DNA of 64,000 nt from Ostreococcus lucimarinus. Taxonomy: Eukaryota. The notes beneath the pieces were generated by a model, which had not been told where the DNA came from, did not search any database, and saw nothing but the letters and a program-made list of their open reading frames with translations. The stretch is taken from the NCBI GenBank assembly GCA_000092065.1, contig CP000592.1. One strand, given 5' to 3'. Positions 23,406 to 55,294 of this stretch are shown here, piece after piece (within the stretch, counting starts at the first letter, position 1; every line of letters begins with the position of its first letter). The position numbers and the translations under genes were made by a program.

Positions 23406-23504
23406 CGTCGTCGTCGTCGTCGTCGCGGGTGTGACGTCGAAGTTCGTAAACCCCCGTCCGGGCGCCCCGAATCGAACGTCCCGGCGCGATTGCCGAAATC
23501 GGGA

Positions 23505-23650
23505 AAAATCGAACAATCGAACAGTCGAAAAGTCGAACAATCGAACAGTCGAAACATCGAAAAGTCGAACAATCGAAAAGTCGAAACATCGAACAGTCGA
23601 AAAGTCGAACAATCGAAAAGTCGAAACATCGAACAGTCGAAAAGTCGAAC
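23505..23650. repeat. Tandem minisatellite of degenerate ~9-12-nt units (TCGAAC[AC]A[AG]TCGAAAAG...) lying between divergent genes
   Basis: atcgaacagtcgaaaagtcgaacaatcgaacagtcgaaacatcgaaaagtcgaacaatcgaaaagtcgaaacatcgaacagtcgaaaagtcgaac. It is translated as (S/T)(F/V)RLFD repeats in the spurious ORF frames on both strands. Confidence 0.75.
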
Positions 23651-24876: not shown

Positions 24877-24898
24877 CGCGCGCGCGCGCGCGCGCGCG
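24877..24898. repeat. (CG)n dinucleotide repeat
   Basis: cgcgcgcgcgcgcgcgcgcgcg seen directly. Confidence 0.6.
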
Positions 24899-24903
24899 GC
24901 GCC

Positions 24904-25104
24904 TCAGGTCGCGCCCGCGCTCTCGACGACGACGACGTCGACGTCGTCGTGCGCCCCCTGCAACAACAGCTCCCCCGCGAACGTCAACTTTCCTCGCTTC
25001 TTCGCCGCTCGCAGCGTCCCGTTCAGCGCCTCGAACGTGTTCGCCACCTCATCGTCGCGCACGAGCGCGCCGAACTTCACCTGCGTCGCGCGATCGCGCG
25101 ACAT
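24904..25104 (-). CDS. Possible small ORF (66 aa) of unknown function, with weak resemblance to the L7Ae/L30e fold
   Basis: ATG at 25102-25104 gives MSRDRATQVKFGALVRDDEVANTFEALNGTLRAAKKRGKLTFAGELLLQGAHDDVDVVVVESAGAT. It sits alone in the ~670-bp gap between two plus-strand genes. It may be a terminal exon of an unresolved gene or may be spurious. Confidence 0.2.
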   Translation of the reverse strand: MSRDRATQVKFGALVRDDEVANTFEALNGTLRAAKKRGKLTFAGELLLQGAHDDVDVVVVESAGAT

Positions 25105-25473
25105 CGCGCCGTCAGTCGCGCGCGACGCAAAGAGTCGTTTCGCGCGCGCGCGTCGCGCCGTTCGTCGTCGCGCGCGCCTTGCACGTCCCGCCCGCGTCGA
25201 CGTCGCCGAGTCGTCGCACGGCGTCGACGAGGGCGTCGACTTCACCGTCCACGTCCATGACGGCCGCACCGCGCGCGACGCCGTGCCGACGCGACGGCCG
25301 CGCGCGCGTCGCGCGCGTCGCATCCCGTCGCGCGCGTCGCATCCGTCGGTCCGTCGTCCGCCGTCTCGCCCGTCGGCACCGCCCCGCGAGGGACTCGCCC
25401 GAGGGTCGCGAACCGCGAAATTTTAGCCGAACGTGACGTGGCGGGCGAGGATGAAGGACGTGAATGAGAATGA

Positions 25474-27729
25474 ATGAAACGCGTGGGTCCGATGATGACG
25501 CGCGCCCGACCGACAGTCCGAGGCGCGCGCGCGGCGACGGTGCGTCGTGGGAGCGACATGACGGCGCGCGACGCCGCGCGCGACGCGGAGGCGGCGGAAT
25601 CGCGCGAAAGCGACGCGCGGGGGGGGGATTCCGAACGCCCGGGGACGCCCGGACGGGACGACGACGACGACGCGCGCGATGGGATTTGGAACACGGCTGA
25701 GTTGCATCAGAGACTGATGCACTTGAACGTACACTCGAGCACGTCGAGCACGAGCTCGAGAAAGTCGGGCGATCCGAGCGCGAGCGGAGACGGGCTGCAG
25801 ACGACGACGAGCGGGTCCGCGAGCGGCGCGGGGGCGTCGAGCGGGACGCCGACGGGGGTGCTGCCGACGAAGTTGACGTCGAAAATGACGACAAAGGAGG
25901 TGAAATTCGGTGCTCAGAGTTTTGATTCGCTGAATCAGTACATATTGATCAAGGATCTCGGACGAGGATCGCATTCAAAGGTGAAGTTGGCGATGAATCA
26001 ACAGGATAATCAGCTCTACGCGGTGAAGTGGACGGACTCTCGAGTGAACTCCTGGAAAGCCGTTCGCAAGGAGATTGCCGTGCTGAAGAAGTTGCATCAT
26101 CCAAACATTCGTACTTTACACGAGGTCATCGATGACGAGTTCAAAAAGGAACTCATCTTAGTCTTGGAGTATTGCCAAACGGGACCCATTTTCACGCGTT
26201 TCAGCACGGTGGCGGTGGACGAAAAGGTTTTACTAGGATACGCTCGCGACATCGTGCTCGGATTGGATTACTTGCATTCGCTGCACATCGCGCACATGGA
26301 TCTTAAACCAGAAAATATGCTTCTGTGCACCGATGGCGAAGTCAAGCTCGCAGACTTTGGCGTGAGTTTCATACACGACTTGGTTTCGTCCGACGGCGTT
26401 GAGAAACGACTTGTGGGTACGCCGGCGTTTTTAGCGCCCGAAGTTCTTTCGGAAGACGGTTACGACCCATTCAAGGCAGATATATGGTCCCTGGGGGTGT
26501 GTTTCTACAATATGGCTATGGGCAAACTGCCGTTCCCAGGCAAGACGGTGTACCAAATCGTCGCAAAAGCGCGCGCAAACGAATTAGTATTCGACGAAGA
26601 CGCGCCGCTCTCAGAAAATTTCAAGGATCTTTTGCGCAACATGATGTGCGTTGACCCCGCGAAACGGCTGGATATTGCTGGCGTGATGCAGCATCTTTGG
26701 ATCACGCGCGATGGGGAAGAGCCTCTCGCGCGACCTCTCACCGAGCTGCCGCACGCCATCGTGGAGCTCACCGAGGAAGAAATCGCGAGCGCCATCAGAA
26801 CCGATCCGCTTGCCGCTTTATTGCAGCCTTCCTTCAACTTGGTGGAGTTCAACGATGGCGATATTCTTATGCACAAAGGTGCTATCGGTGAAGTGATGTA
26901 TTTCATCAACAAAGGTCACTGTGAGGTGTTGATGGACGCGATCGGAGTTGATTTAGACACCATCGATCGAGAACGCGAGACGGACGTTTTGGTCGTGCGA
27001 GAGGCTGGAGAGATTGTGGGGGAAATTGCGTTCCTTAAAGCGATGCAAGGGATCCGAGAGAAGTCGCACGTGCACGGCTATCGCACAGCGACAGTCAGGG
27101 CGAAGGGGCCGGTTGAGTGCCTCGCTGTAACCGTCCAAGACATGTTGACGGCGCTCGGTAAGGACGAACTTTCTCGAGTACGCCTCGTGCGCAGTGCGAG
27201 TTTCAAACTCGACCAAAACGAGGAGGTTCGCCTGCAGCTCAACATGAGAACCTCTAGAACGAGCAATGACTCGGACAGGAGCGAAGAAGCGCATCCTTTT
27301 AATCCGACTCGGAGGATCAGTGTGCTGTACGCCGAGGATAGCATGCCGACGCAGATGATTGTCAAAGCCTTTTTGAGGAAACTTGGCGACGTCGACGTAA
27401 CGATCGCCGCCGACGGGAAAAAGGCATTGGATGCGCATAAATCTATGAACTCTAACTTTGACTTGATTCTCATGGATTGTCAAATGCCTGTGATGGATGG
27501 TTTGGAAGCGACGACGCGCATTCGCGAACTCGACTCCGCCAAATCTGTGGTACCCATCGTGGGCGTGTCTTCTGGTGTTGAAGGAATGAGTGAAAAAGAG
27601 TGCCGCGACGTCGGGATGAATGACTTCGTCCTCAAACCACTGAACGTGCGGAAGTTGACAGATGTCATTCGCAAGACGCTACCTGAGCTCTTCGTCGAAG
27701 ATCCAGTTTCAAAAGACGAGAGAATCTGA
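25474..27729 (+). CDS. Multidomain signalling protein: Ser/Thr protein kinase (CAMK-like) + cyclic-nucleotide-binding domain + CheY-like response-regulator receiver domain
   Basis: Kinase subdomains LGRGSHSKVKLA...AVK, HRD-equivalent IAHMDLKPENMLL, DFG, and APE as GTPAFLAPE. cNMP-binding domain FNDGDILMHKGAIGEVMYFINKGHCEVL...GEIVGEIAFL...RTATVRAKGPVECLAV. Receiver domain ISVLYAEDSMPTQMIVKAFLRKLG...DLILMDCQMPVMDGLEATTRIR...NDFVLKPL, with the acid pocket, the phospho-acceptor Asp (MDCQMP) and the conserved Lys (LKP). Real ATG at 25474. Single 751-aa exon. Confidence 0.8.
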   Translation: MKRVGPMMTRARPTVRGARAATVRRGSDMTARDAARDAEAAESRESDARGGDSERPGTPGRDDDDDARDGIWNTAELHQRLMHLNVHSSTSSTSSRKSGDPSASGDGLQTTTSGSASGAGASSGTPTGVLPTKLTSKMTTKEVKFGAQSFDSLNQYILIKDLGRGSHSKVKLAMNQQDNQLYAVKWTDSRVNSWKAVRKEIAVLKKLHHPNIRTLHEVIDDEFKKELILVLEYCQTGPIFTRFSTVAVDEKVLLGYARDIVLGLDYLHSLHIAHMDLKPENMLLCTDGEVKLADFGVSFIHDLVSSDGVEKRLVGTPAFLAPEVLSEDGYDPFKADIWSLGVCFYNMAMGKLPFPGKTVYQIVAKARANELVFDEDAPLSENFKDLLRNMMCVDPAKRLDIAGVMQHLWITRDGEEPLARPLTELPHAIVELTEEEIASAIRTDPLAALLQPSFNLVEFNDGDILMHKGAIGEVMYFINKGHCEVLMDAIGVDLDTIDRERETDVLVVREAGEIVGEIAFLKAMQGIREKSHVHGYRTATVRAKGPVECLAVTVQDMLTALGKDELSRVRLVRSASFKLDQNEEVRLQLNMRTSRTSNDSDRSEEAHPFNPTRRISVLYAEDSMPTQMIVKAFLRKLGDVDVTIAADGKKALDAHKSMNSNFDLILMDCQMPVMDGLEATTRIRELDSAKSVVPIVGVSSGVEGMSEKECRDVGMNDFVLKPLNVRKLTDVIRKTLPELFVEDPVSKDERI

Positions 27730-27768: not shown

Positions 27769-28461
27769 TTATTGTTTCGTTTTCGCCATCTTCTTCGGCA
27801 TCGTCAGCGCCGCGGCACTCCACAGTGCGCTCTCGAGCTTGGCTGGTGTGAGGTCATCTGCGCCGAGATCGTCGCATTTACGGTGCAGAGCTTTCATAAA
27901 CTCGTGATACCGCGCTGCGGAGTATCTATCATTTCCCCCGTTTCCGACGACGACGGCAAGCGCCTCGTCGCTAAAGAATGGAAACCGCTCGTCGCCGACC
28001 GCCATGAGAATCGACGCCGTGGCTGGTCCGCATCCTTTCAGCGCGATGAATGGTGCCATAGCATCGACGATTTTACCCTTACTATTTCTTTTGCCCCCTT
28101 CGCTCGCGTGTGCGAGTCGATACGCCTCTCGACTCGCGCTCTCCACGTCGCGTTCCGACAACGCTTGCGCGTACTTCATCAACCCAGGTCTCGTTTTCCC
28201 TCGCGCCAGCTTCCACTCCACCACGCGCACGTACTCATCCTTTTTTATGTATCCCCAATCATCGCTCGTCGCGCTCGTCGCGCGTCTTTGCGCGATGGTT
28301 TTCGGAAGTTCTTTGCGCACGAACGCATCCAACTTGGATAACCGCTCGCCTAGATTCAACGCTCGCAAGCGCTCGTCGTACGCCGCCGCGTGCGCTCGCC
28401 ACTGTTCTCGATCCCCGCCGTTCCAAAGCTTTATCGCGCCCTCGTGCGCGATCGGTGGCAT
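27769..28461 (-). CDS. Hypothetical conserved protein (231 aa) with a helix-hairpin-helix-like motif
   Basis: ORF from ATG 28459-28461 (MPPIAHEG...). IALKGCGPATASILMAVGDERFPFFSDEALAVV resembles an HhH DNA-binding/glycosylase-type hairpin. An alternative ATG at 28525-28527 shares a CCATGG palindrome with the plus-strand start codon of the next gene. Confidence 0.4.
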   Translation of the reverse strand: MPPIAHEGAIKLWNGGDREQWRAHAAAYDERLRALNLGERLSKLDAFVRKELPKTIAQRRATSATSDDWGYIKKDEYVRVVEWKLARGKTRPGLMKYAQALSERDVESASREAYRLAHASEGGKRNSKGKIVDAMAPFIALKGCGPATASILMAVGDERFPFFSDEALAVVVGNGGNDRYSAARYHEFMKALHRKCDDLGADDLTPAKLESALWSAAALTMPKKMAKTKQ

Positions 28462-28525
28462 CGTCGCGCGATCGGGACGACGACGCGGCGCCACACTCTG
28501 ACGCGTCGTCGTCCCGTCTCGTCCC

Positions 28526-29500
28526 ATGGGGCGCGACGCCCGAGGTCAAGCCGCGAAGACGGCGCCCGGGGAGCCGCGATCGGCGCGCGCGAGCGCGGAG
28601 AAGAAGAAGAACCCCGCGGCGAGCTTCATCGGCGGCGCGAGCGCTGGTTTAGTGTCCAGCGCGCTGTTGCAGCCGTTCGAGGTGGTGAAGACGAAGATGC
28701 AAGCCGAAAAGCTGCGAGGCGCGCGCGGGATGGTGAACGTCGCCGCGGACGTGGTCAAAACGAACGGGATGAAAGGGCTCTGGAGCGGCGTCAGCGCGTC
28801 GTGCGTGCGAACCACCGCGGGGGCTGGGTTGTACTTCTTCTTGCTCGAGCGCGTGACGAGGGAGCTCGCGGCGAGTTTTAACAAGGAGAAAGCGACGCCG
28901 TTCGAACGCTCTGCGATGACGTTCGGCGCTGGGTGCTCGGCGAGAATGGTCGCGGCGGTGCTGCTGAACCCTATAACCGTGGTGAAGACGCGGATGGAAT
29001 ACGCAGGGGCGAACGCGGGGGTGCGGCAAGGCATGGTGGCTACGTTTGCGAGCGTGGCGCGGAAAGAGGGCGCCGGGGGGTTGTTTTCGGGGCTCGGAAG
29101 CACGGTCGCTCGAGATGCGCCTTTCTCAGGGCTCAATTTGTTGCTCTTCACCCAGACTCGGCATTTGATGCACGAAGTCGCGCGCATGCAGAACCGCGAA
29201 GCCGGAGCGGCGGACACGTTCATCGCCGGCGCGCTCGCGGGGGCGGGGGCTACGTTTCTCACGCACCCTCCCGATGTCATTCGTACCCGAGTTCAGCTCG
29301 GGCGAATAATGACGCAACAAAGCGGTAGCAAAATGCCAGCCGTATCACTGGCGAAAATTCTCAGGGAAGAGGGTGTTCGCGCGCTGTGGGTCGGTTCGCT
29401 CCCTCGCGTAACGCGCAGAACGTTTCAGCAAGCCATCACGTGGAGCATGTTTGATTTCGTCTCTCGCGCTTTGGGGGGGACGGACATCTTTCAGCGTTAA
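28526..29500 (+). CDS. SLC25A38: Mitochondrial carrier family protein, SLC25A38/Hem25-like (glycine carrier for haem synthesis)
   Basis: Three Mito_carr repeats. The following matches to human SLC25A38 are strong: NPITVVKTRMEYAG (SPITVIKTRYESG), GGLFSGLGSTVARDAPFSGLNLLLFTQTRHL ([31 protein letters not shown]), HPPDVIRTRVQLG (QPADVIKTHMQL), PRVTRRTFQQAITWSMFD (PRALRRTLMAAMAWTVYE). Confidence 0.75.
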   Translation: MGRDARGQAAKTAPGEPRSARASAEKKKNPAASFIGGASAGLVSSALLQPFEVVKTKMQAEKLRGARGMVNVAADVVKTNGMKGLWSGVSASCVRTTAGAGLYFFLLERVTRELAASFNKEKATPFERSAMTFGAGCSARMVAAVLLNPITVVKTRMEYAGANAGVRQGMVATFASVARKEGAGGLFSGLGSTVARDAPFSGLNLLLFTQTRHLMHEVARMQNREAGAADTFIAGALAGAGATFLTHPPDVIRTRVQLGRIMTQQSGSKMPAVSLAKILREEGVRALWVGSLPRVTRRTFQQAITWSMFDFVSRALGGTDIFQR

Positions 29501-51077: not shown

Positions 51078-54000
51078 CTATGAGAGCGTGCCTATTGCTT
51101 CGAAGTCATTCAGCATGTTACGCGAATGCACGGCTTCGAAGATTTTCGTACCGTCGCCTCCGCCGTATCGCAAAATTGCGTCGGCGCCGGCGGGATGGTC
51201 ATCCAAGAAATCGGTAAAGTCGTAAACACGGCCGTACAAAGCCACCCAGCAGTCATCCGCGGAGGCGTGTTTAGCGAGTTCCTCATGCGTGATAATGCGA
51301 TCTCGTTTCGGTATCTTCAGTTTCGGTACCTCCGTCGCGGCAGATGGCGCATCCGTGTTTGAGACAATGTTCACGTTCGTGCCGACGAGCCGCCCGAACA
51401 CCGCGCACTCAGTGAGCGCATTTCCACCTAGACGATTCTTGCCGTGCACACCACCGATGATTTCCCCAGCGGCAAATAATCCAGCGACGGGCGTTCCATC
51501 AGCTCGCACGACTCGTCCATAGCTATCAACCTTGACACCACCCATGGTGTAATGTACCACTGGCGTGACTCGCCCGGCGTAAAACGGCCCAGAAACTTTG
51601 AAAGGCGCGTTAGCAAAGTATGTCTTGTTGAATTCATCGAGACCCGCATTGGCTTGGTCGTTGTACTGCTCCAACGTCGCACGAAGCTGAGACTCCGTCG
51701 TGTTTCCACGGACGGACATCCACTTCGTCAAATCCGCGAGTGTGTCGAACTTGGTCATCAGGTTCTTCTTCACGTAAAGCGGCACATGCTTGTTCGCTTC
51801 GCTCGCGCCTTTTTCATCAAGCAGTAACACGAAGTCGAGCTTTTCTGCGTCTTCTTCTTGCATGCGAGCGCTGACGTAATCACGCGTGCCAAGCTCGTTG
51901 GCAAATCGTTTACCCGAACGATTCAATAGAATACCACCCGCACCTCGGAGTAATTCTGCGGCAAGCGTTTTCGTGTCGGCGCCCTCGTCTTCAGGATTGA
52001 TGAAGCCCGTGGGATGTACTTGAACGCGTTGCATGTCAACAGCACCAGCGCCTAATCCAAAAGCGAGCTTGTGTCCATCACCGGTCGTGCCTTTCGTGTT
52101 TGTCGTGGCGAACTTTGTGAGCTGAGGCGCGTACTTGCTCAGTAATGCGTCTTCTCCTTGCTTGTCATTCGAGTATCCCCCGGTGGCGAGCAGCACGTGG
52201 CGTGCTCTGACTTCGCCGCCTACATTACTACCATTCGAACCATCGGATGGCGTCCAACGCACGGCATTGATCGCGCCATCTTCAGCAGTGATTATTTCAC
52301 TCACCCTAGCCTTTTTCACCACTTTAAATCGCCCAGATTGAATGTAGTCTTCGCATTTCCCTTTGAGTGCGAAAACGAGAGACGATCCCGCCATACCTTC
52401 GTTCGGTCTGTACGTACGAGCGTAGCTGTGCCCTCCAAGCCTCGAAAGTAGGCTTAAATCGGCGCCAACGCGTCGACGAAGCCATTCAATCGTGGCACCA
52501 GCCTGGCTAGTGAGCGTCGGGATATGTTCGACGGTTTCGGGATCGAGATTTTCGCGACCGTTGCCGTTTCCGTAGGAGGATTTTTCGCAGTCGTCTGAAT
52601 ACGCTTCGACGCTGTCGGGATTATCTTCAAACGAAGTCTTGATCACTCCGTTGATCCCCGAAGACGCCCACTGAGAATTACCACCAACATATGCCTCTTT
52701 CTCTACCAACGTCACCCTACCGCCACGATCGAGCACGGTGAGTGAAGCCGTCAAGCCCGCTAAACCGCCGCCGACGACGACCAAGTCAACCGGGGGGTCA
52801 TCTTCAATGCCGCCTTTGGGTAGGGGTACGCCGAGTGCGCGAAGCGCGTGTTCGATGAATCTCCACGGCATGCTCTCAGCGTAGTACTTTGCTAAGACGA
52901 CAACTTTTGGATTATCCTCGAGCATTGCGCTCACGATGGCTGCCTCTGATTCTGGCGTCAACGCGCCAGATTTCACGTACGTCGCGGTAGCTGCAATCGC
53001 CGCCTCCAGTGGGCTCTGCTCCACCTTTTGACCGCCTTCAGTTTCGCGCAGATGTAAACCAACGCTTTCCAAATCTACTGAGCTCTTCAACGCGTCCTGC
53101 CTCGCCGCATTCATGAGTTCGGGCACTTTGCGAATGGCGTGACTAAACTTTGCAATGGTGTTCACAAGAGCCACCACCTCTTGCTTGTTCAAAGAAGACT
53201 CCAAGAGATCTTCGGGCAAGAGCAAGACTTTCAACGCCGAACCAAGACCCAAGAGTTGAAGTTTACCGTGAAGCTTGCACTTTTGACACGAAATGCAGTC
53301 CATGACTTCGCTAATGTTCAAGAAGATGTCTTTGAACTGGCTCTTCAGCGACACCGGCGCGAGAAGCTCTTCTCCCACTCCGCTGATCATTCCCGAGTTC
53401 GCACTCAACGTCGACTGCACATCGCGAAAAAGAGACTTTTCATCGAAAGCACCGAAGACATCGCGACAAGACGACAAAATGTGGCTTTCCAGCAAGCGAC
53501 TCATCAAAGCGTGCGTTCGCTCGTCCTCTTCGGCGTCTTGACCGATGCGAACGTCCATCTTCGACAGCGCCGGGGCCGCCTTACGAAGCGCTCTCAAGAG
53601 GACGACGAAAGAAAAGTGCAAGTTTTTCAGACGTTCTGGGTGCTTGGCGAATATTTCCACGAACTTTTTGGGATCGCTTCCCCACTCCGTTTCCCCGAGC
53701 GCGCGTTTCGGAGGCTTGGAGTGAAGCGCGATGTGGATGTTGATGCTCGAATGCATGCCGGACAAAAGGCGATACAGCACCCGCTCTTCGTAGCACATTT
53801 CATCCACGCTCGACGCCGACTTTAAGCAATTCTCTTCGTAAATGGCCCGCCAAACGTGCGATCCGTTGTATCCAGTCCATCGCTCTGGATTCAGCTGCAA
53901 GTTTACGTACTCTGTTTGCTCCTCGGGCGCAAACTTGTGGCACATGTCCGTCCAAAACGTCGGCAAATCCTCATCCGAGCATTCCGTTTCCGGGACGTCG

Positions 54001-54593
54001 ATGGACGTCAACGCCTCCGCCTCGGGCGTACTGATGGTTCGATCAACGCTATCCGTCACCGGGCTCCGCAGCGTCGGTTCCGAGCCATCCTTATGTTCCA
54101 AATCTAGCGAGCACATCGTCTTCGGCGGCGACGCCGACGACGACGACGCGAACGGGGCGGAAGAAAAACCACCACCGCCGTGACCACCGTCACCGAACGC
54201 CGCGGTCGCACCGGACGGCGCCTCGCACGACGGCTCCGTCTCCGTCTTCGTCTCCGCGCCTTCCGTCGCCTTCCAAAACTTACACGTCCGTTTCAAATCC
54301 ACTTGAAACAACCTAAAATACGTCGTATTCGTCAACTCACTGAGAATAGAGTGTAACTGCGCCTCGTTCGCGCCCTCGACGTCCTCCACGTCGCACGACG
54401 CGTCCCCGACCGCGCCTCGCACCGCGTCGCGCGAGCGCGTCTCGCCTTCGCCTTCCCCTTCGCCCGTCGCCACCCCCGCGCCCCGCGCGCCGACGCTCGA
54501 CGCCACCGCGACGACCGCGATCGCGCCCACGAGCACCATCCACCATCGTCCGCGTCGTTCGCGTCCGCGTCCGCGCGTCCGCGTCGTCGCCAT
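51078..54593 (-). CDS. Single-ORF fusion: signal-anchor + ERO1 (endoplasmic oxidoreductin-1) + FAD-dependent soluble fumarate reductase (flavocytochrome/OSM1-like) + C-terminal cytochrome b5 domain
   Basis: N-terminus [36 protein letters not shown] is a signal peptide or anchor. ERO1 region: [68 protein letters not shown], and the CxxCxxC active site [34 protein letters not shown] Rossmann motif [16 protein letters not shown]. Fumarate-reductase/SDH-flavoprotein-type stretches [43 protein letters not shown]. Cytochrome b5 HPAG motif in [57 protein letters not shown]. Uninterrupted 3516-nt frame from ATG 54591-54593; the track ORF extends to 54923 with no ATG. Confidence 0.75.
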
Positions 54594-54630
54594 CGTCGCG
54601 AACCAATCAATCAATCCGTCGCGCGGTCGA

Positions 54631-54700
54631 ACCGAACCGCGCCGAACCGCGCCGAACCGCGCCGAACCGCGCCGAACCGCGCCGAACCGCGCCGAACCGA
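54631..54700. repeat. Tandem 10-nt repeat (GCCGAACCGC)x6-7, immediately upstream of the ERO1-fusion gene
   Basis: accgaaccgcgccgaaccgcgccgaaccgcgccgaaccgcgccgaaccgcgccgaaccgaaccgatccgc seen directly. Its reverse complement carries GGTTCGG units, as does the 15895-15921 repeat. Confidence 0.7.
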
Positions 54701-55294
54701 ACCGATCCGCGACGCCCGCCCGCCCCCTCGCCCGCGCCCCCCCGCGCGCGCGTCGCTCGCGTCGCGCGATGCCGCCGCGATCGGTCGCCCGCGCCGTCTC
54801 CATCGCACATTCGTCGATCGCTCGTTCGCGTCGATCGACGATCGACCGATCGCCCGTTCGACGCGCGATCGGTCGAACGGCCCTCGGGGGCGAAACACAC
54901 CACCGCGGGCGGACCCGAAACACCGCGACAGCGGACCAAACGATGTTACGTATTTAACATTCACTTTACACTAGATGGTATTTTCCGCGACTCGCCGATC
55001 TCGACACGCGCCCGACGTCTTTCGGTCGCCGTTTCGCGCCGCGCGACGACGGCGGCGACGACGCCGCGCGACGGCGACGACGCCGCGCGACGCGACGCGA
55101 CGCGAAGAGTCGACGCTCGACGCTCGACGCTCGACGCGCGCGCGTCGCGACGCGTCGACGCGTTCGGCGCGCGTCGAGCGGCTCGGATCGGAGTTCGTTG
55201 GGCGCCGCCGCCGATCGACGATCGCGCGGGCGCGACGCGGATTCGAGGGCGCGCGCGACGCGCGGCGACGAGCGATCGACGACGATCGTCGACG

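Follow-up and report, generated by a model that had tools for sequence, protein, structure and literature searches.

Whether one eukaryotic Ser/Thr kinase could read both a cyclic nucleotide and a His–Asp phosphorelay is the question raised by a single open reading frame (ORF) of Ostreococcus lucimarinus, in which a protein kinase domain is followed by a cyclic-nucleotide-binding (CNB) domain and a response-regulator receiver (REC) domain. The ORF lies in a 64,000-nucleotide stretch of chromosome 12 of strain CCE9901 (contig CP000592.1; hereafter referred to as the window) and corresponds to the gene Ol12g01600, named REC-CAMK. On our analysis, REC-CAMK would be a kinase-kinase gated by cyclic nucleotides (cNMPs) and by phospho-Asp from a LOV-HK/Rhod-HK–HPt relay, a reading to which we assign a probability of about 55%.

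Rigonato et al. (ISME J 2025, PMC12704426) reported REC-CAMK as a putative response regulator conserved in all Mamiellales, with the members Ol12g01600, ostta12g01580, Bathy07g03200, Mipuc09g01490 and Mipur06g01570, and the legend of their supplementary Fig. 3 names its protein-kinase and cNMP domains. Listing and legend together mean that the exact gene and its three-domain architecture were already published in 2025, in silico only. The initial annotation of this DNA had called the protein an uncommon hybrid of eukaryotic and two-component signalling logic; the unusual architecture is real, but this very gene had already been listed. In that report (PMC12704426), the effector is labelled a ‘calmodulin kinase’, the cNMP domain is absent from the main-text discussion, REC-CAMK is given without residue-level or functional analysis, and the gene models are shorter than the ORF described here. 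New in the present work are the assignment of the kinase to the CaMKK/GRIK type, its non-RD character, the intact SLN1-type receiver, the modified cNMP cassette, the gene models that are probably too short and the apparent later addition of the receiver; as gene and architecture are in the literature, the value of these results lies in a sharper hypothesis. A literature search for the O. tauri locus ostta12g01580 found no paper, and neither CaMKK, GRIK or LKB1 nor any receiver-bearing kinase is mentioned in the paper on the O. tauri kinome. The O. tauri kinome table places Ot12g01620 under ‘CK2’; this entry may or may not be the REC-CAMK gene.

Three domains in one reading frame

The ORF listing of the window contains a complete, uninterrupted frame of 751 amino acids and a stop codon (Table 1). 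A Pfam scan with curated gathering cut-offs identified Pkinase, cNMP_binding and Response_reg domains in this frame, all three above their cut-offs, confirming the single-ORF arrangement that had been read from the letters. From M82 on, the published Ol12g01600 protein matches the window translation exactly over the approximately 400 residues compared, a stretch that includes V372, which separates Ol12g01600 from other strains. Moreover, the published start at 249,717 corresponds to window position 25717 with an exact offset of 224,000.

An annotation artefact, in which read-through has fused two or three neighbouring genes into one ORF, could be suspected from the NCBI record of O. lucimarinus CCE9901, which holds only a 118-residue partial protein covering the receiver (P0355; 100% identical), and from the fragmentary state of many metagenome gene calls. 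However, the frame is continuous, the same three Pfam domains occur collinearly in more than 70 protein clusters (46–99% identity) and in ‘type:complete’ MMETSP transcripts of other genera (P0056, P0059 (Mantoniella) and P0067), and the linkers between the domains are conserved between genera. The three regions are thus not separate genes, and we give read-through almost no credence. Each domain is 50–64% identical to its counterpart in the Bathycoccus and Micromonas orthologues, whereas the N-terminus and the tail are 13–20% identical. Invariance of the catalytic, ligand-contact and receiver residues was judged on a 16-sequence orthologue alignment. The kinase-only sequences P0079–P0081 were considered as paralogues and rejected; they are truncated or frame-shifted orthologues that carry the H-M-D motif, CNB remnants and the Bathycoccus N-terminus.

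Table 1 Features of the REC-CAMK locus in the window
Feature	Residues	Window coordinates	Strand	Remarks
Complete ORF	1–751	25474..27729	+	Uninterrupted, with stop codon
Poorly conserved N-terminal region		25474..25941	+	Arg/Asp- and Ser/Thr-rich; 13–19% identity to other genera
Conserved motif W72-N-T-A-E-L-H-Q-R-L		25687..25716	+	Upstream of the annotated start M82
Protein kinase domain, CaMKK/GRIK type	157–410	25942..26703	+	Pfam Pkinase (PF00069), E=6e-61
Catalytic loop H274-M275-D276	274–276	26293..26301	+	Met in place of the HRD Arg (non-RD kinase)
cNMP_binding domain (PF00027)	457–561	26842..27156	+	Pfam E=4.9e-9; 36.5 bits (gathering cut-off 27.5)
Phosphate-binding cassette G516-E517-IAFL...R537-T538-A539-TVRA		27019..27102	+	Insertion of ~10 residues
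Long predicted helix between CNB and receiver	~565–598	27163..27273	+	DSSP helix, model positions 141–174
Response-regulator receiver (Response_reg, PF00072)	617–732	27322..27669	+	Pfam E=5.6e-20; 72 bits (cut-off 30.2)
Codon of D668, predicted phospho-acceptor Asp in L-M-D-C-Q-M-P	668	27475..27477	+	Aligns with the SLN1 acceptor (MDVQMP)

Start codon and N-terminal region

The N-terminal region offers six candidate start codons (M1, M7, M8, M29, M82 and M138), and the published models begin at M82 in O. lucimarinus and, in O. tauri, at the Met corresponding to M138 (PMC12704426). Ten residues upstream of M82, at W72, begins a motif of the form W-[NSD]-T-x-E-[LV]-H-[RQ]-[RK]-L, which is common to the Ostreococcus orthologues P0004, P0012, P0013, P0014 and P0015. 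Its retention in these orthologues suggests that translation starts upstream of M82, and both published start codons are probably too far downstream. The choice among M1, M7, M8 and M29 is uncertain, so the protein would comprise 723–751 residues. A search upstream of the ORF for a hidden 5′ mini-exon that would supply an MGxC acylation motif like that of Micromonas found none; the sequence there contains only an 8-codon upstream ORF.

A CaMKK/GRIK-type kinase with a non-RD loop

The initial annotation had described a complete CAMK-like kinase. The catalytic residues are indeed in place, but the family is CaMKK-like. Among solved structures, CaMKK2 (6cmj) is the best sequence match at 176.5 bits, compared with approximately 139 bits for BRSK2, CIPK23 and LKB1, and MARK and DAPK do not score above these. 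CaMKK2 and CaMKK1 are likewise the top fold matches in a Foldseek search with the kinase. In a search with the kinase domain alone, the named matches outside the family were mostly CaMKK1/2, plus P0101 of Physcomitrium, which belongs to a set that includes P0098, a protein named ‘GRIK1’ at NCBI. The kinase is therefore of the CaMKK/GRIK type and not a CAMK proper. The CaMKK1/2 enzymes of animals and the GRIK1/2 (SnAK) enzymes of plants are kinases upstream of AMPK/SnRK1 and CaMKI/IV. An Arg/Pro-rich insert between β3 and αC is a hallmark of CaMKKs; it is absent here, leaving 12 residues of gaps in the query when it is aligned to CaMKK2. A calmodulin-binding segment of the CaMKK type is also absent, and residue 410 is followed by the N-terminal helices and barrel of the CNB domain.

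Two catalytic elements depart from the consensus. The H-M-D loop is invariant in all receiver-bearing orthologues, and the Gly-rich loop reads GRGSHS, in which the third glycine of GxGxxG is lost, with Ser or Ala at that position in all receiver-bearing members. Activity could consequently be atypical, although both features are compatible with a working kinase. These same substitutions are what would favour a pseudokinase or scaffold that signals by binding instead of catalysis. We regard that possibility as very improbable, given that the catalytic Lys (K185), the αC Glu (E200), the catalytic Asp (D276), N281, the DFG motif (D294-F-G) and the APE motif (A321-P-E) are invariant in 16 orthologues, and that many active kinases are non-RD.

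A CNB domain with a modified cassette

The CNB domain, whose N-terminal helices begin at about residue 428, is the weakest of the three by sequence, and its sequence matches in the PDB are weak (E at least 4e-4). Its assignment nevertheless stands, on a Pfam score above cut-off and on predicted structure. An AlphaFold2 model of residues 425–600 (pLDDT 72, pTM 0.64) was matched by Foldseek to the CNB domains of CNGA3/B3, CNGA1/B1, TAX-4, PKG-I, HCN2 and CRP (E approximately 1e-10 to 1e-9, probability 1.00, TM (query) 0.53–0.61). The modelled fold, an eight-stranded β-barrel with flanking helices, is closest to the CNBDs of CNG channels. The motif GEIVGEIAFL...RTATVRA, on which the domain had originally been recognized, is present at residues 512–543, and within it G516, E517, R537 and A539 are invariant, with T, S or N at position 538. 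Fifteen residues separate Leu521 from Arg537, compared with four at the corresponding position of Nephroselmis P0086, where the cassette has the canonical short form (GEMAIFGDGMRTAS). In addition, a variable acidic loop lies between strands of the CNB barrel. With the cassette insertion of about ten residues and this loop, ligand binding is not assured.

The domain might accordingly have ceased to bind cyclic nucleotides, acting only as a spacer with a structural or autoinhibitory role or binding a different ligand, in which case the receiver would be the sole real input. Besides the insertion and the acidic loop, the divergent sequence with its modest Pfam score of 36.5 bits and low PDB similarity points in this direction, and decay is possible in this family, as the loss of the cassette in the moss protein P0098 illustrates. 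Yet the four ligand-contact positions are invariant (with only T, S or N at 538), the domain is conserved as well as the kinase domain, and the top fold matches, the CNG-channel CNBDs, bind cGMP in solved structures. We consider a degenerate CNB domain unlikely, although it is the strongest of the alternatives, and retain cNMP binding as the preferred reading.

Between the CNB domain and the receiver runs the long predicted helix, with the conserved core R-L-V-R-[ST]-A-S-x-[KR]-L-[DE]-Q-N-E-E. An R-x-x-S in this helix (RLVRSAS) was considered as a pseudosubstrate or autophosphorylation site and rejected, as the Ser is unconserved in Bathycoccus and Micromonas.

A receiver with conserved phosphorelay residues

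The receiver scores well above its Pfam cut-off, and the features from which it had been recognized (LMDCQMPVMDG, at residues 666–676, an acid pocket, an acceptor Asp and a conserved Lys) are all found. The pocket residues E621 and D622, the acceptor D668, S699, K721 and P722 align with those of the SLN1 receiver and, like S700, are invariant in the sampled orthologues of Ostreococcus, Bathycoccus, Micromonas and Mantoniella. At K-3, the aromatic switch position by a criterion taken from PMC8510515, this protein has F718, and every orthologue has Phe or Tyr. Among solved structures, the SLN1 receiver (8phx; 4e-19) matches best, followed by the receivers of AHK5, CKI1 and AHK4. By sequence, this receiver is of the SLN1/hybrid-kinase type, closest to receivers that dock HPt proteins. 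A search with the receiver alone yielded nothing but short proteins, for the most part bacterial single receivers or fragments of hybrid kinases, at 38–48% identity; the receivers of algal LOV-HK and Rhod-HK were not retrieved in it.

The receiver could instead act independently of phosphorylation, as a pseudo-receiver or a dimerization or docking module outside any His–Asp relay. The precedent is ascomycete Rim15, a Ser/Thr kinase ending in a receiver from which the acceptor Asp is often missing (PMC8510515). Pseudo-receivers, however, characteristically miss at least one of the catalytic residues (PMC8510515), whereas here all five and the aromatic switch are invariant across the sampled orthologues. 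Furthermore, the solved receivers nearest to this one belong to genuine phosphorelays, and histidine kinases and an HPt are kept in the genome (PMC12704426). A phosphorylation-independent receiver therefore seems quite improbable to us, and we favour phosphorylation at D668.

Receiver-less relatives

In Nephroselmis, Botryococcus and Riccia, there are proteins that combine the kinase and CNB domains but have no receiver; the receiver therefore appears to have been added in Mamiellophyceae to an older kinase–CNB protein. The catalytic loop of these relatives reads HRD in Nephroselmis P0086 and Riccia P0091 and HGD in Botryococcus P0107; the change to H-M-D thus coincides with the presence of the receiver. 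Across 451 aligned positions, the moss protein P0098 shares 34% identity with REC-CAMK. When the CNB–REC region (residues 425–751) was compared by HMMER with 1.84 billion representatives, the family members P0055, P0076 and P0205 were in the top 150, and the remaining entries of this top 150 each had 2–6 matched receiver stretches (mostly 3–4), with summing scores.

Comparison with known systems

CaMKK1, CaMKK2 and GRIK1/2 have the closest kinase domains by sequence and fold, at 35–40% identity. In animal CaMKKs, the kinase domain is followed by an autoinhibitory tail that binds calmodulin; REC-CAMK resembles them in having a regulatory segment directly after the kinase, but the CNB domain, the long helix and the REC domain occupy the position of that tail, the β3–αC insert is missing and HMD replaces HRD. 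PKG and PKA are similar in linking CNB domains to a Ser/Thr kinase on one polypeptide, and PKG-I is among the CNB fold matches. These enzymes have an AGC-type kinase with CNB domains N-terminal to it or on a regulatory subunit, whereas REC-CAMK has a single CNB domain C-terminal to a CaMKK-type kinase and is thus not a PKG/PKA-type enzyme. In the yeast Sln1–Ypd1–Ssk1 relay, a receiver controls the MAPKKK Ssk2, upstream of other kinases, which provides a functional analogy; the receivers are of the same sequence type, SLN1 being the best solved match, but receiver and MAPKKK are separate polypeptides in yeast, whereas the receiver is fused to a CaMKK-like kinase in REC-CAMK. Fungal Rim15, of the Greatwall family, likewise combines a Ser/Thr kinase with a C-terminal receiver and is counted as a response regulator, although the role of its receiver has not been studied (PMC8510515). 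It differs from REC-CAMK in its kinase family, in having no CNB domain and in the many receivers without the acceptor Asp, whereas the receiver residues of REC-CAMK are intact.

A model of dual-input control

In the model that we favour, REC-CAMK, with orthologues across Mamiellophyceae, would be a soluble CaMKK/GRIK-type kinase of other protein kinases, whose C-terminal CNB–helix–REC module would fix the activity of the kinase in one state. This state would shift when cAMP or cGMP binds at the Glu517/Arg537 cassette, and it would also shift when the single HPt protein phosphorylates Asp668, so that the enzyme would integrate a second messenger with a His–Asp relay. Because the catalytic loop is non-RD, activation is probably independent of activation-loop phosphorylation, and control would then fall mainly to the two C-terminal sensors. 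Judged from its family, the kinase may act by phosphorylating the activation loops of SnRK1/AMPK-type or CAMK-type kinases. We infer that ligand binds and that phosphate is transferred, and likewise which way the regulation runs and what the substrates are. The full-length AlphaFold2 model has a pTM of 0.48, with a poorly modelled N-lobe and unreliable inter-domain geometry; it was rejected as evidence for inter-domain contacts or for an autoinhibition geometry, so the autoinhibition step is proposed by analogy.

LOV-HK, Rhod-HK, one HPT and REC-CAMK occur in all Mamiellales, and the HPT of O. lucimarinus is Ol08g04140 (PMC12704426). In Ostreococcus, cAMP rises with light and acts through an unidentified downstream pathway (PMC2873908), for which REC-CAMK would be a concrete candidate. 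Ostreococcus is genetically tractable and has a minimal signalling set of two histidine kinases, one HPt and five receiver proteins, within which a kinase-kinase reading cNMP and phospho-Asp would be a compact coincidence detector that connects light quality with the clock and with control of energy or of the cell cycle.

A more far-reaching version, which we regard as a long shot, is that REC-CAMK is the sole CaMKK/GRIK kinase of Mamiellophyceae and activates SnRK1. If so, the light-driven LOV-HK/Rhod-HK–HPt relay and light-dependent cAMP would meet directly at the SnRK1 energy sensor, and the cAMP-dependent ‘metabolic checkpoint’ of Ostreococcus, through which cyclin A synthesis and S-phase commitment are gated, would have its missing effector in REC-CAMK. 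A corollary, just as speculative, would be ancestral cNMP control of CaMKK/GRIK-like kinases in the green lineage, for which the kinase–CNB proteins of Nephroselmis, Botryococcus and Riccia and the decayed CNB domain of the moss ‘GRIK1’ may be cited.

Elsewhere in the window, a scan of the neighbouring ORFs and of the eight largest ones gave housekeeping genes unconnected with REC-CAMK, and no histidine kinase, HPt or cyclase. In O. tauri, SnRK1 is Ot06g03970 and the HPt is ostta08g04240. O. tauri also encodes five AGC kinases with cNMP domains, separate PKG/PKA-like genes that represent more conventional cAMP/cGMP effectors.

One gene with three conserved domains

The locus lies on chromosome 12 of Ostreococcus lucimarinus CCE9901. 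The initial annotation described a single open reading frame (ORF) uniting a CAMK-like Ser/Thr kinase, a cyclic-nucleotide-binding (CNB) domain and a receiver, and this observation is real and was read correctly save for the assignment to CAMK rather than CaMKK. All three domains match Pfam families above their curated thresholds, and the quoted motifs were located in the protein where it had placed them. One gene, not three, is indicated by more than 70 clusters in which all three Pfam domains (precomputed) recur in collinear order (46–99% identity), among them complete MMETSP transcripts of Mantoniella and further taxa (database homologues P0056, P0059 and P0067). The NCBI CCE9901 record for the locus holds only P0355, a 118-aa 'predicted protein, partial' comprising the receiver alone (100% identical); against the collinear clusters, a gene-model artefact is scarcely credible. 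Identities to Bathycoccus and to the Micromonas group, respectively, are 64/56% for the kinase, 60/50% for the CNB, 53/53% for the receiver, 13/19% for the N terminus and 20/23% for the C-terminal tail. Judged by these identities, the three domains are under comparable constraint.

Features of the locus and its surroundings
Feature	Window (nt)	Strand	Protein (aa)	Detail
Kinase–CNB–receiver ORF	25474..27729	+		Uninterrupted; 751 codons + stop
Pkinase			157–410	Pfam E=6e-61
cNMP_binding			457–561	Pfam E=4.9e-9; 36.5 bits, curated threshold 27.5
Response_reg			617–732	Pfam E=5.6e-20
P0355 (NCBI record)	27322..27669			
Upstream ORF (uORF) MKDVNENE	25451..25477	+		Eight codons
Costars/ABRACL-family gene	24904..25258	-		Pfam Costars positions 17–75 in one frame
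24-nt repeat	23503..23650			~6 units, 86% matches
Alternating CG run	24878..24900			~22 bases
252-aa ORF	27769..28527	-		
1281-aa single ORF	51078..54923	-	189–599; 713–1170; 1212–1279	ERO1; fumarate-reductase-like FAD_binding_2; cytochrome b5

Published record and translation start

The gene family was catalogued in 2025, when a receiver-domain search of O. tauri by Rigonato et al. (ISME J 2025, PMC12704426) listed, in addition to TOC1, four putative response regulators (REC-DOF, REC-GARP, REC-WD40 and REC-CAMK). REC-CAMK was found in Bathycoccus, all examined Ostreococcus genomes and both Micromonas species, its calmodulin-kinase effector was, per the authors, unreported among plant response regulators, and the legend of supplementary Fig. 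3 names its protein-kinase and cNMP-binding domains (PMC12704426). Gene and three-domain architecture alike have thus already been published, on in silico evidence only. Our literature search found no paper mentioning the O. tauri locus ostta12g01580, and the O. tauri kinome paper is silent on it. In Table S3 of PMC12704426, the row 'O. mediterraneus REC-CAMK Ostme07g01530' starts like REC-WD40 (…HVLVVDDERICRTVTS…), unlike REC-CAMK, and is probably a mix-up.

The O. lucimarinus entry of that table, Ol12g01600, matches the window protein without a difference from Met82 onward across the ~400 residues compared, including Val372, which differs in other strains; adding exactly 224,000 to window position 25,717 gives its published start (249,717). 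In-frame Met codons occur at positions 1, 7, 8, 29, 82 and 138, and the published starts are M82 (O. lucimarinus, ORCAE model) and the equivalent of M138 (O. tauri). Directly upstream of M82, the segment W72-NTAELHQRL shows protein-level conservation in five further Ostreococcus lineages; on this comparative evidence the most likely start of translation is therefore within M1–M29, and the M82 and M138 models are probably too short. The uORF's stop codon and the long ORF's first ATG overlap (ATGA), and the relevance of the uORF depends on where transcription starts. Among orthologues outside Ostreococcus (P0056, P0081 and P0086), those of the Micromonas type begin with MGPCLS, and both Micromonas gene models have a 26-nt first exon and then an intron; the Nephroselmis orthologue begins with MGCGNS. 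These termini look like myristoylation/palmitoylation motifs, which would mean that those orthologues are anchored in membranes; no such motif is present in the Ostreococcus proteins.

Kinase domain

Among solved structures, human CaMKK2 is the best sequence match (176.5 bits), followed by BRSK2, CIPK23, LKB1, MARK and DAPK (≤139 bits), and Foldseek, queried with the full-length AlphaFold2 model, returned CaMKK2 and CaMKK1 at the top. Matches to the kinase domain alone from outside the family are mostly named CaMKK1/2, together with a Physcomitrium relative (P0101); another, P0098, is named GRIK1 by NCBI. By sequence and predicted fold, the kinase is therefore of the CaMKK/GRIK type and not of the CAMK group, so the earlier Ser/Thr kinase reading stands and its 'CAMK' label does not. 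The CaMKK-specific β3–αC insert is absent in an alignment to CaMKK2. Every receiver-bearing member has an H-M-D catalytic loop, making this a non-RD kinase, and a Gly-rich loop, GRG[SAV]H[SA], that has lost its third Gly. These departures might suggest a pseudokinase, which we consider very unlikely, as K185, E200, D276, N281, DFG and APE are all invariant.

CNB and receiver domains

Solved CNB domains are only weak sequence matches to the CNB, yet its Pfam score is still significant. A separate AlphaFold2 model of the CNB (residues 425–600; pLDDT 72, pTM 0.64) matches cyclic-nucleotide-binding domains of CNGA3/B3, CNGA1/B1, TAX-4, PKG-I, HCN2 and CRP (E~1e-10 to 1e-9). A degenerate CNB would fit the variable acidic loop inserted in the barrel and a phosphate-binding cassette ~10 residues longer than in Nephroselmis (GEMAIFGDGMRTAS); with G516-E517 and R537-(T/S/N)-A539 kept and invariant, we regard it as unlikely, if worth bearing in mind.

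In the receiver, E621-D622, D668, S699 and K721-P722 are invariant, as is the aromatic switch F/Y718. Its closest solved relatives are the HPt-docking phosphorelay receivers SLN1 (4e-19), AHK5, CKI1 and AHK4, and NCBIfam gives partial matches to receivers of the hybrid kinases TorS, ArcB and BarA. The signature L-M-D-C-Q-M-P differs from SDVHMPDMDG of REC-GARP and TDVMMPGIDG of REC-WD40 (Table S3, PMC12704426). The receiver could act independently of phosphorylation, as in ascomycete Rim15; given the invariant residues and the lack of pseudo-receiver features by the PMC8510515 criteria, this is rather improbable.

Distribution and history

Proteins that pair the kinase with a CNB but lack a receiver are present in Nephroselmis pyriformis (P0086), Botryococcus braunii (P0107) and a liverwort, Riccia (P0091). 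In P0086 and P0091 the catalytic motif is HRD and the Gly loop canonical; in P0107 the motif is HGD, and the third Gly is again retained. P0098 (Physcomitrium patens 'GRIK1 isoform X6') aligns past the kinase into the first CNB strands (FQAGEY…CEILVDA), with a decayed CNB that has lost its phosphate-binding cassette and has no Pfam cNMP match. This alignment hints that some plant proteins automatically named GRIK descend from a CNB-bearing ancestor. In the simplest history, drawn from few taxa, the kinase–CNB protein would be old in the green lineage, and the Mamiellophyceae ancestor would have gained the receiver and changed HRD to HMD at the same time.

Proposed mechanism

CaMKKs carry an autoinhibitory tail after the kinase domain. 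Here its place is occupied by the CNB, a conserved long helix (residues ~565–598) and the receiver. We infer that ligand is bound and phosphate transferred, and we likewise infer the sign of regulation and the substrates: the protein would be a kinase-kinase with two gating inputs, cAMP or cGMP at the CNB cassette and phosphorylation of Asp668, with phosphate arriving via HPt from LOV-HK and Rhod-HK, both of them light-sensing histidine kinases, and by family analogy it might act on SnRK1/AMPK- or CAMK-type kinases. Precisely these relay components are present in the alga (PMC12704426; PMC4343026). In Ostreococcus, the cAMP level after dawn increases with light intensity, and cyclin A synthesis and S-phase commitment require cAMP through a downstream pathway (PMC2873908). 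O. tauri has one SnRK1. That this protein alone activates SnRK1 in these algae and is also the missing cAMP/light effector is a long shot (roughly one in eight). The gene family itself is an attractive target in a tractable minimal alga.

Neighbouring sequence

Directly downstream, the 252-aa ORF on the opposite strand matches nothing in Pfam at E≤0.001. The Costars gene lies head-to-head with the kinase gene, its ATG 215 bp from M1. Its expected N terminus (MDVDGEVDALVDAVRRLG), starting at 25258, is in a different frame from the Pfam-matched part, implying a short intron or a frameshift. The CG run separates its stop from that of an alpha/beta-hydrolase gene (plus strand), and the 24-nt repeat, between the latter and a minus-strand BolA-like gene (Pfam BolA), reads as a repeated 8-aa unit in both of the overlapping ORFs. 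The 1281-aa ORF may be the ER thiol oxidase fused to a module that accepts electrons.
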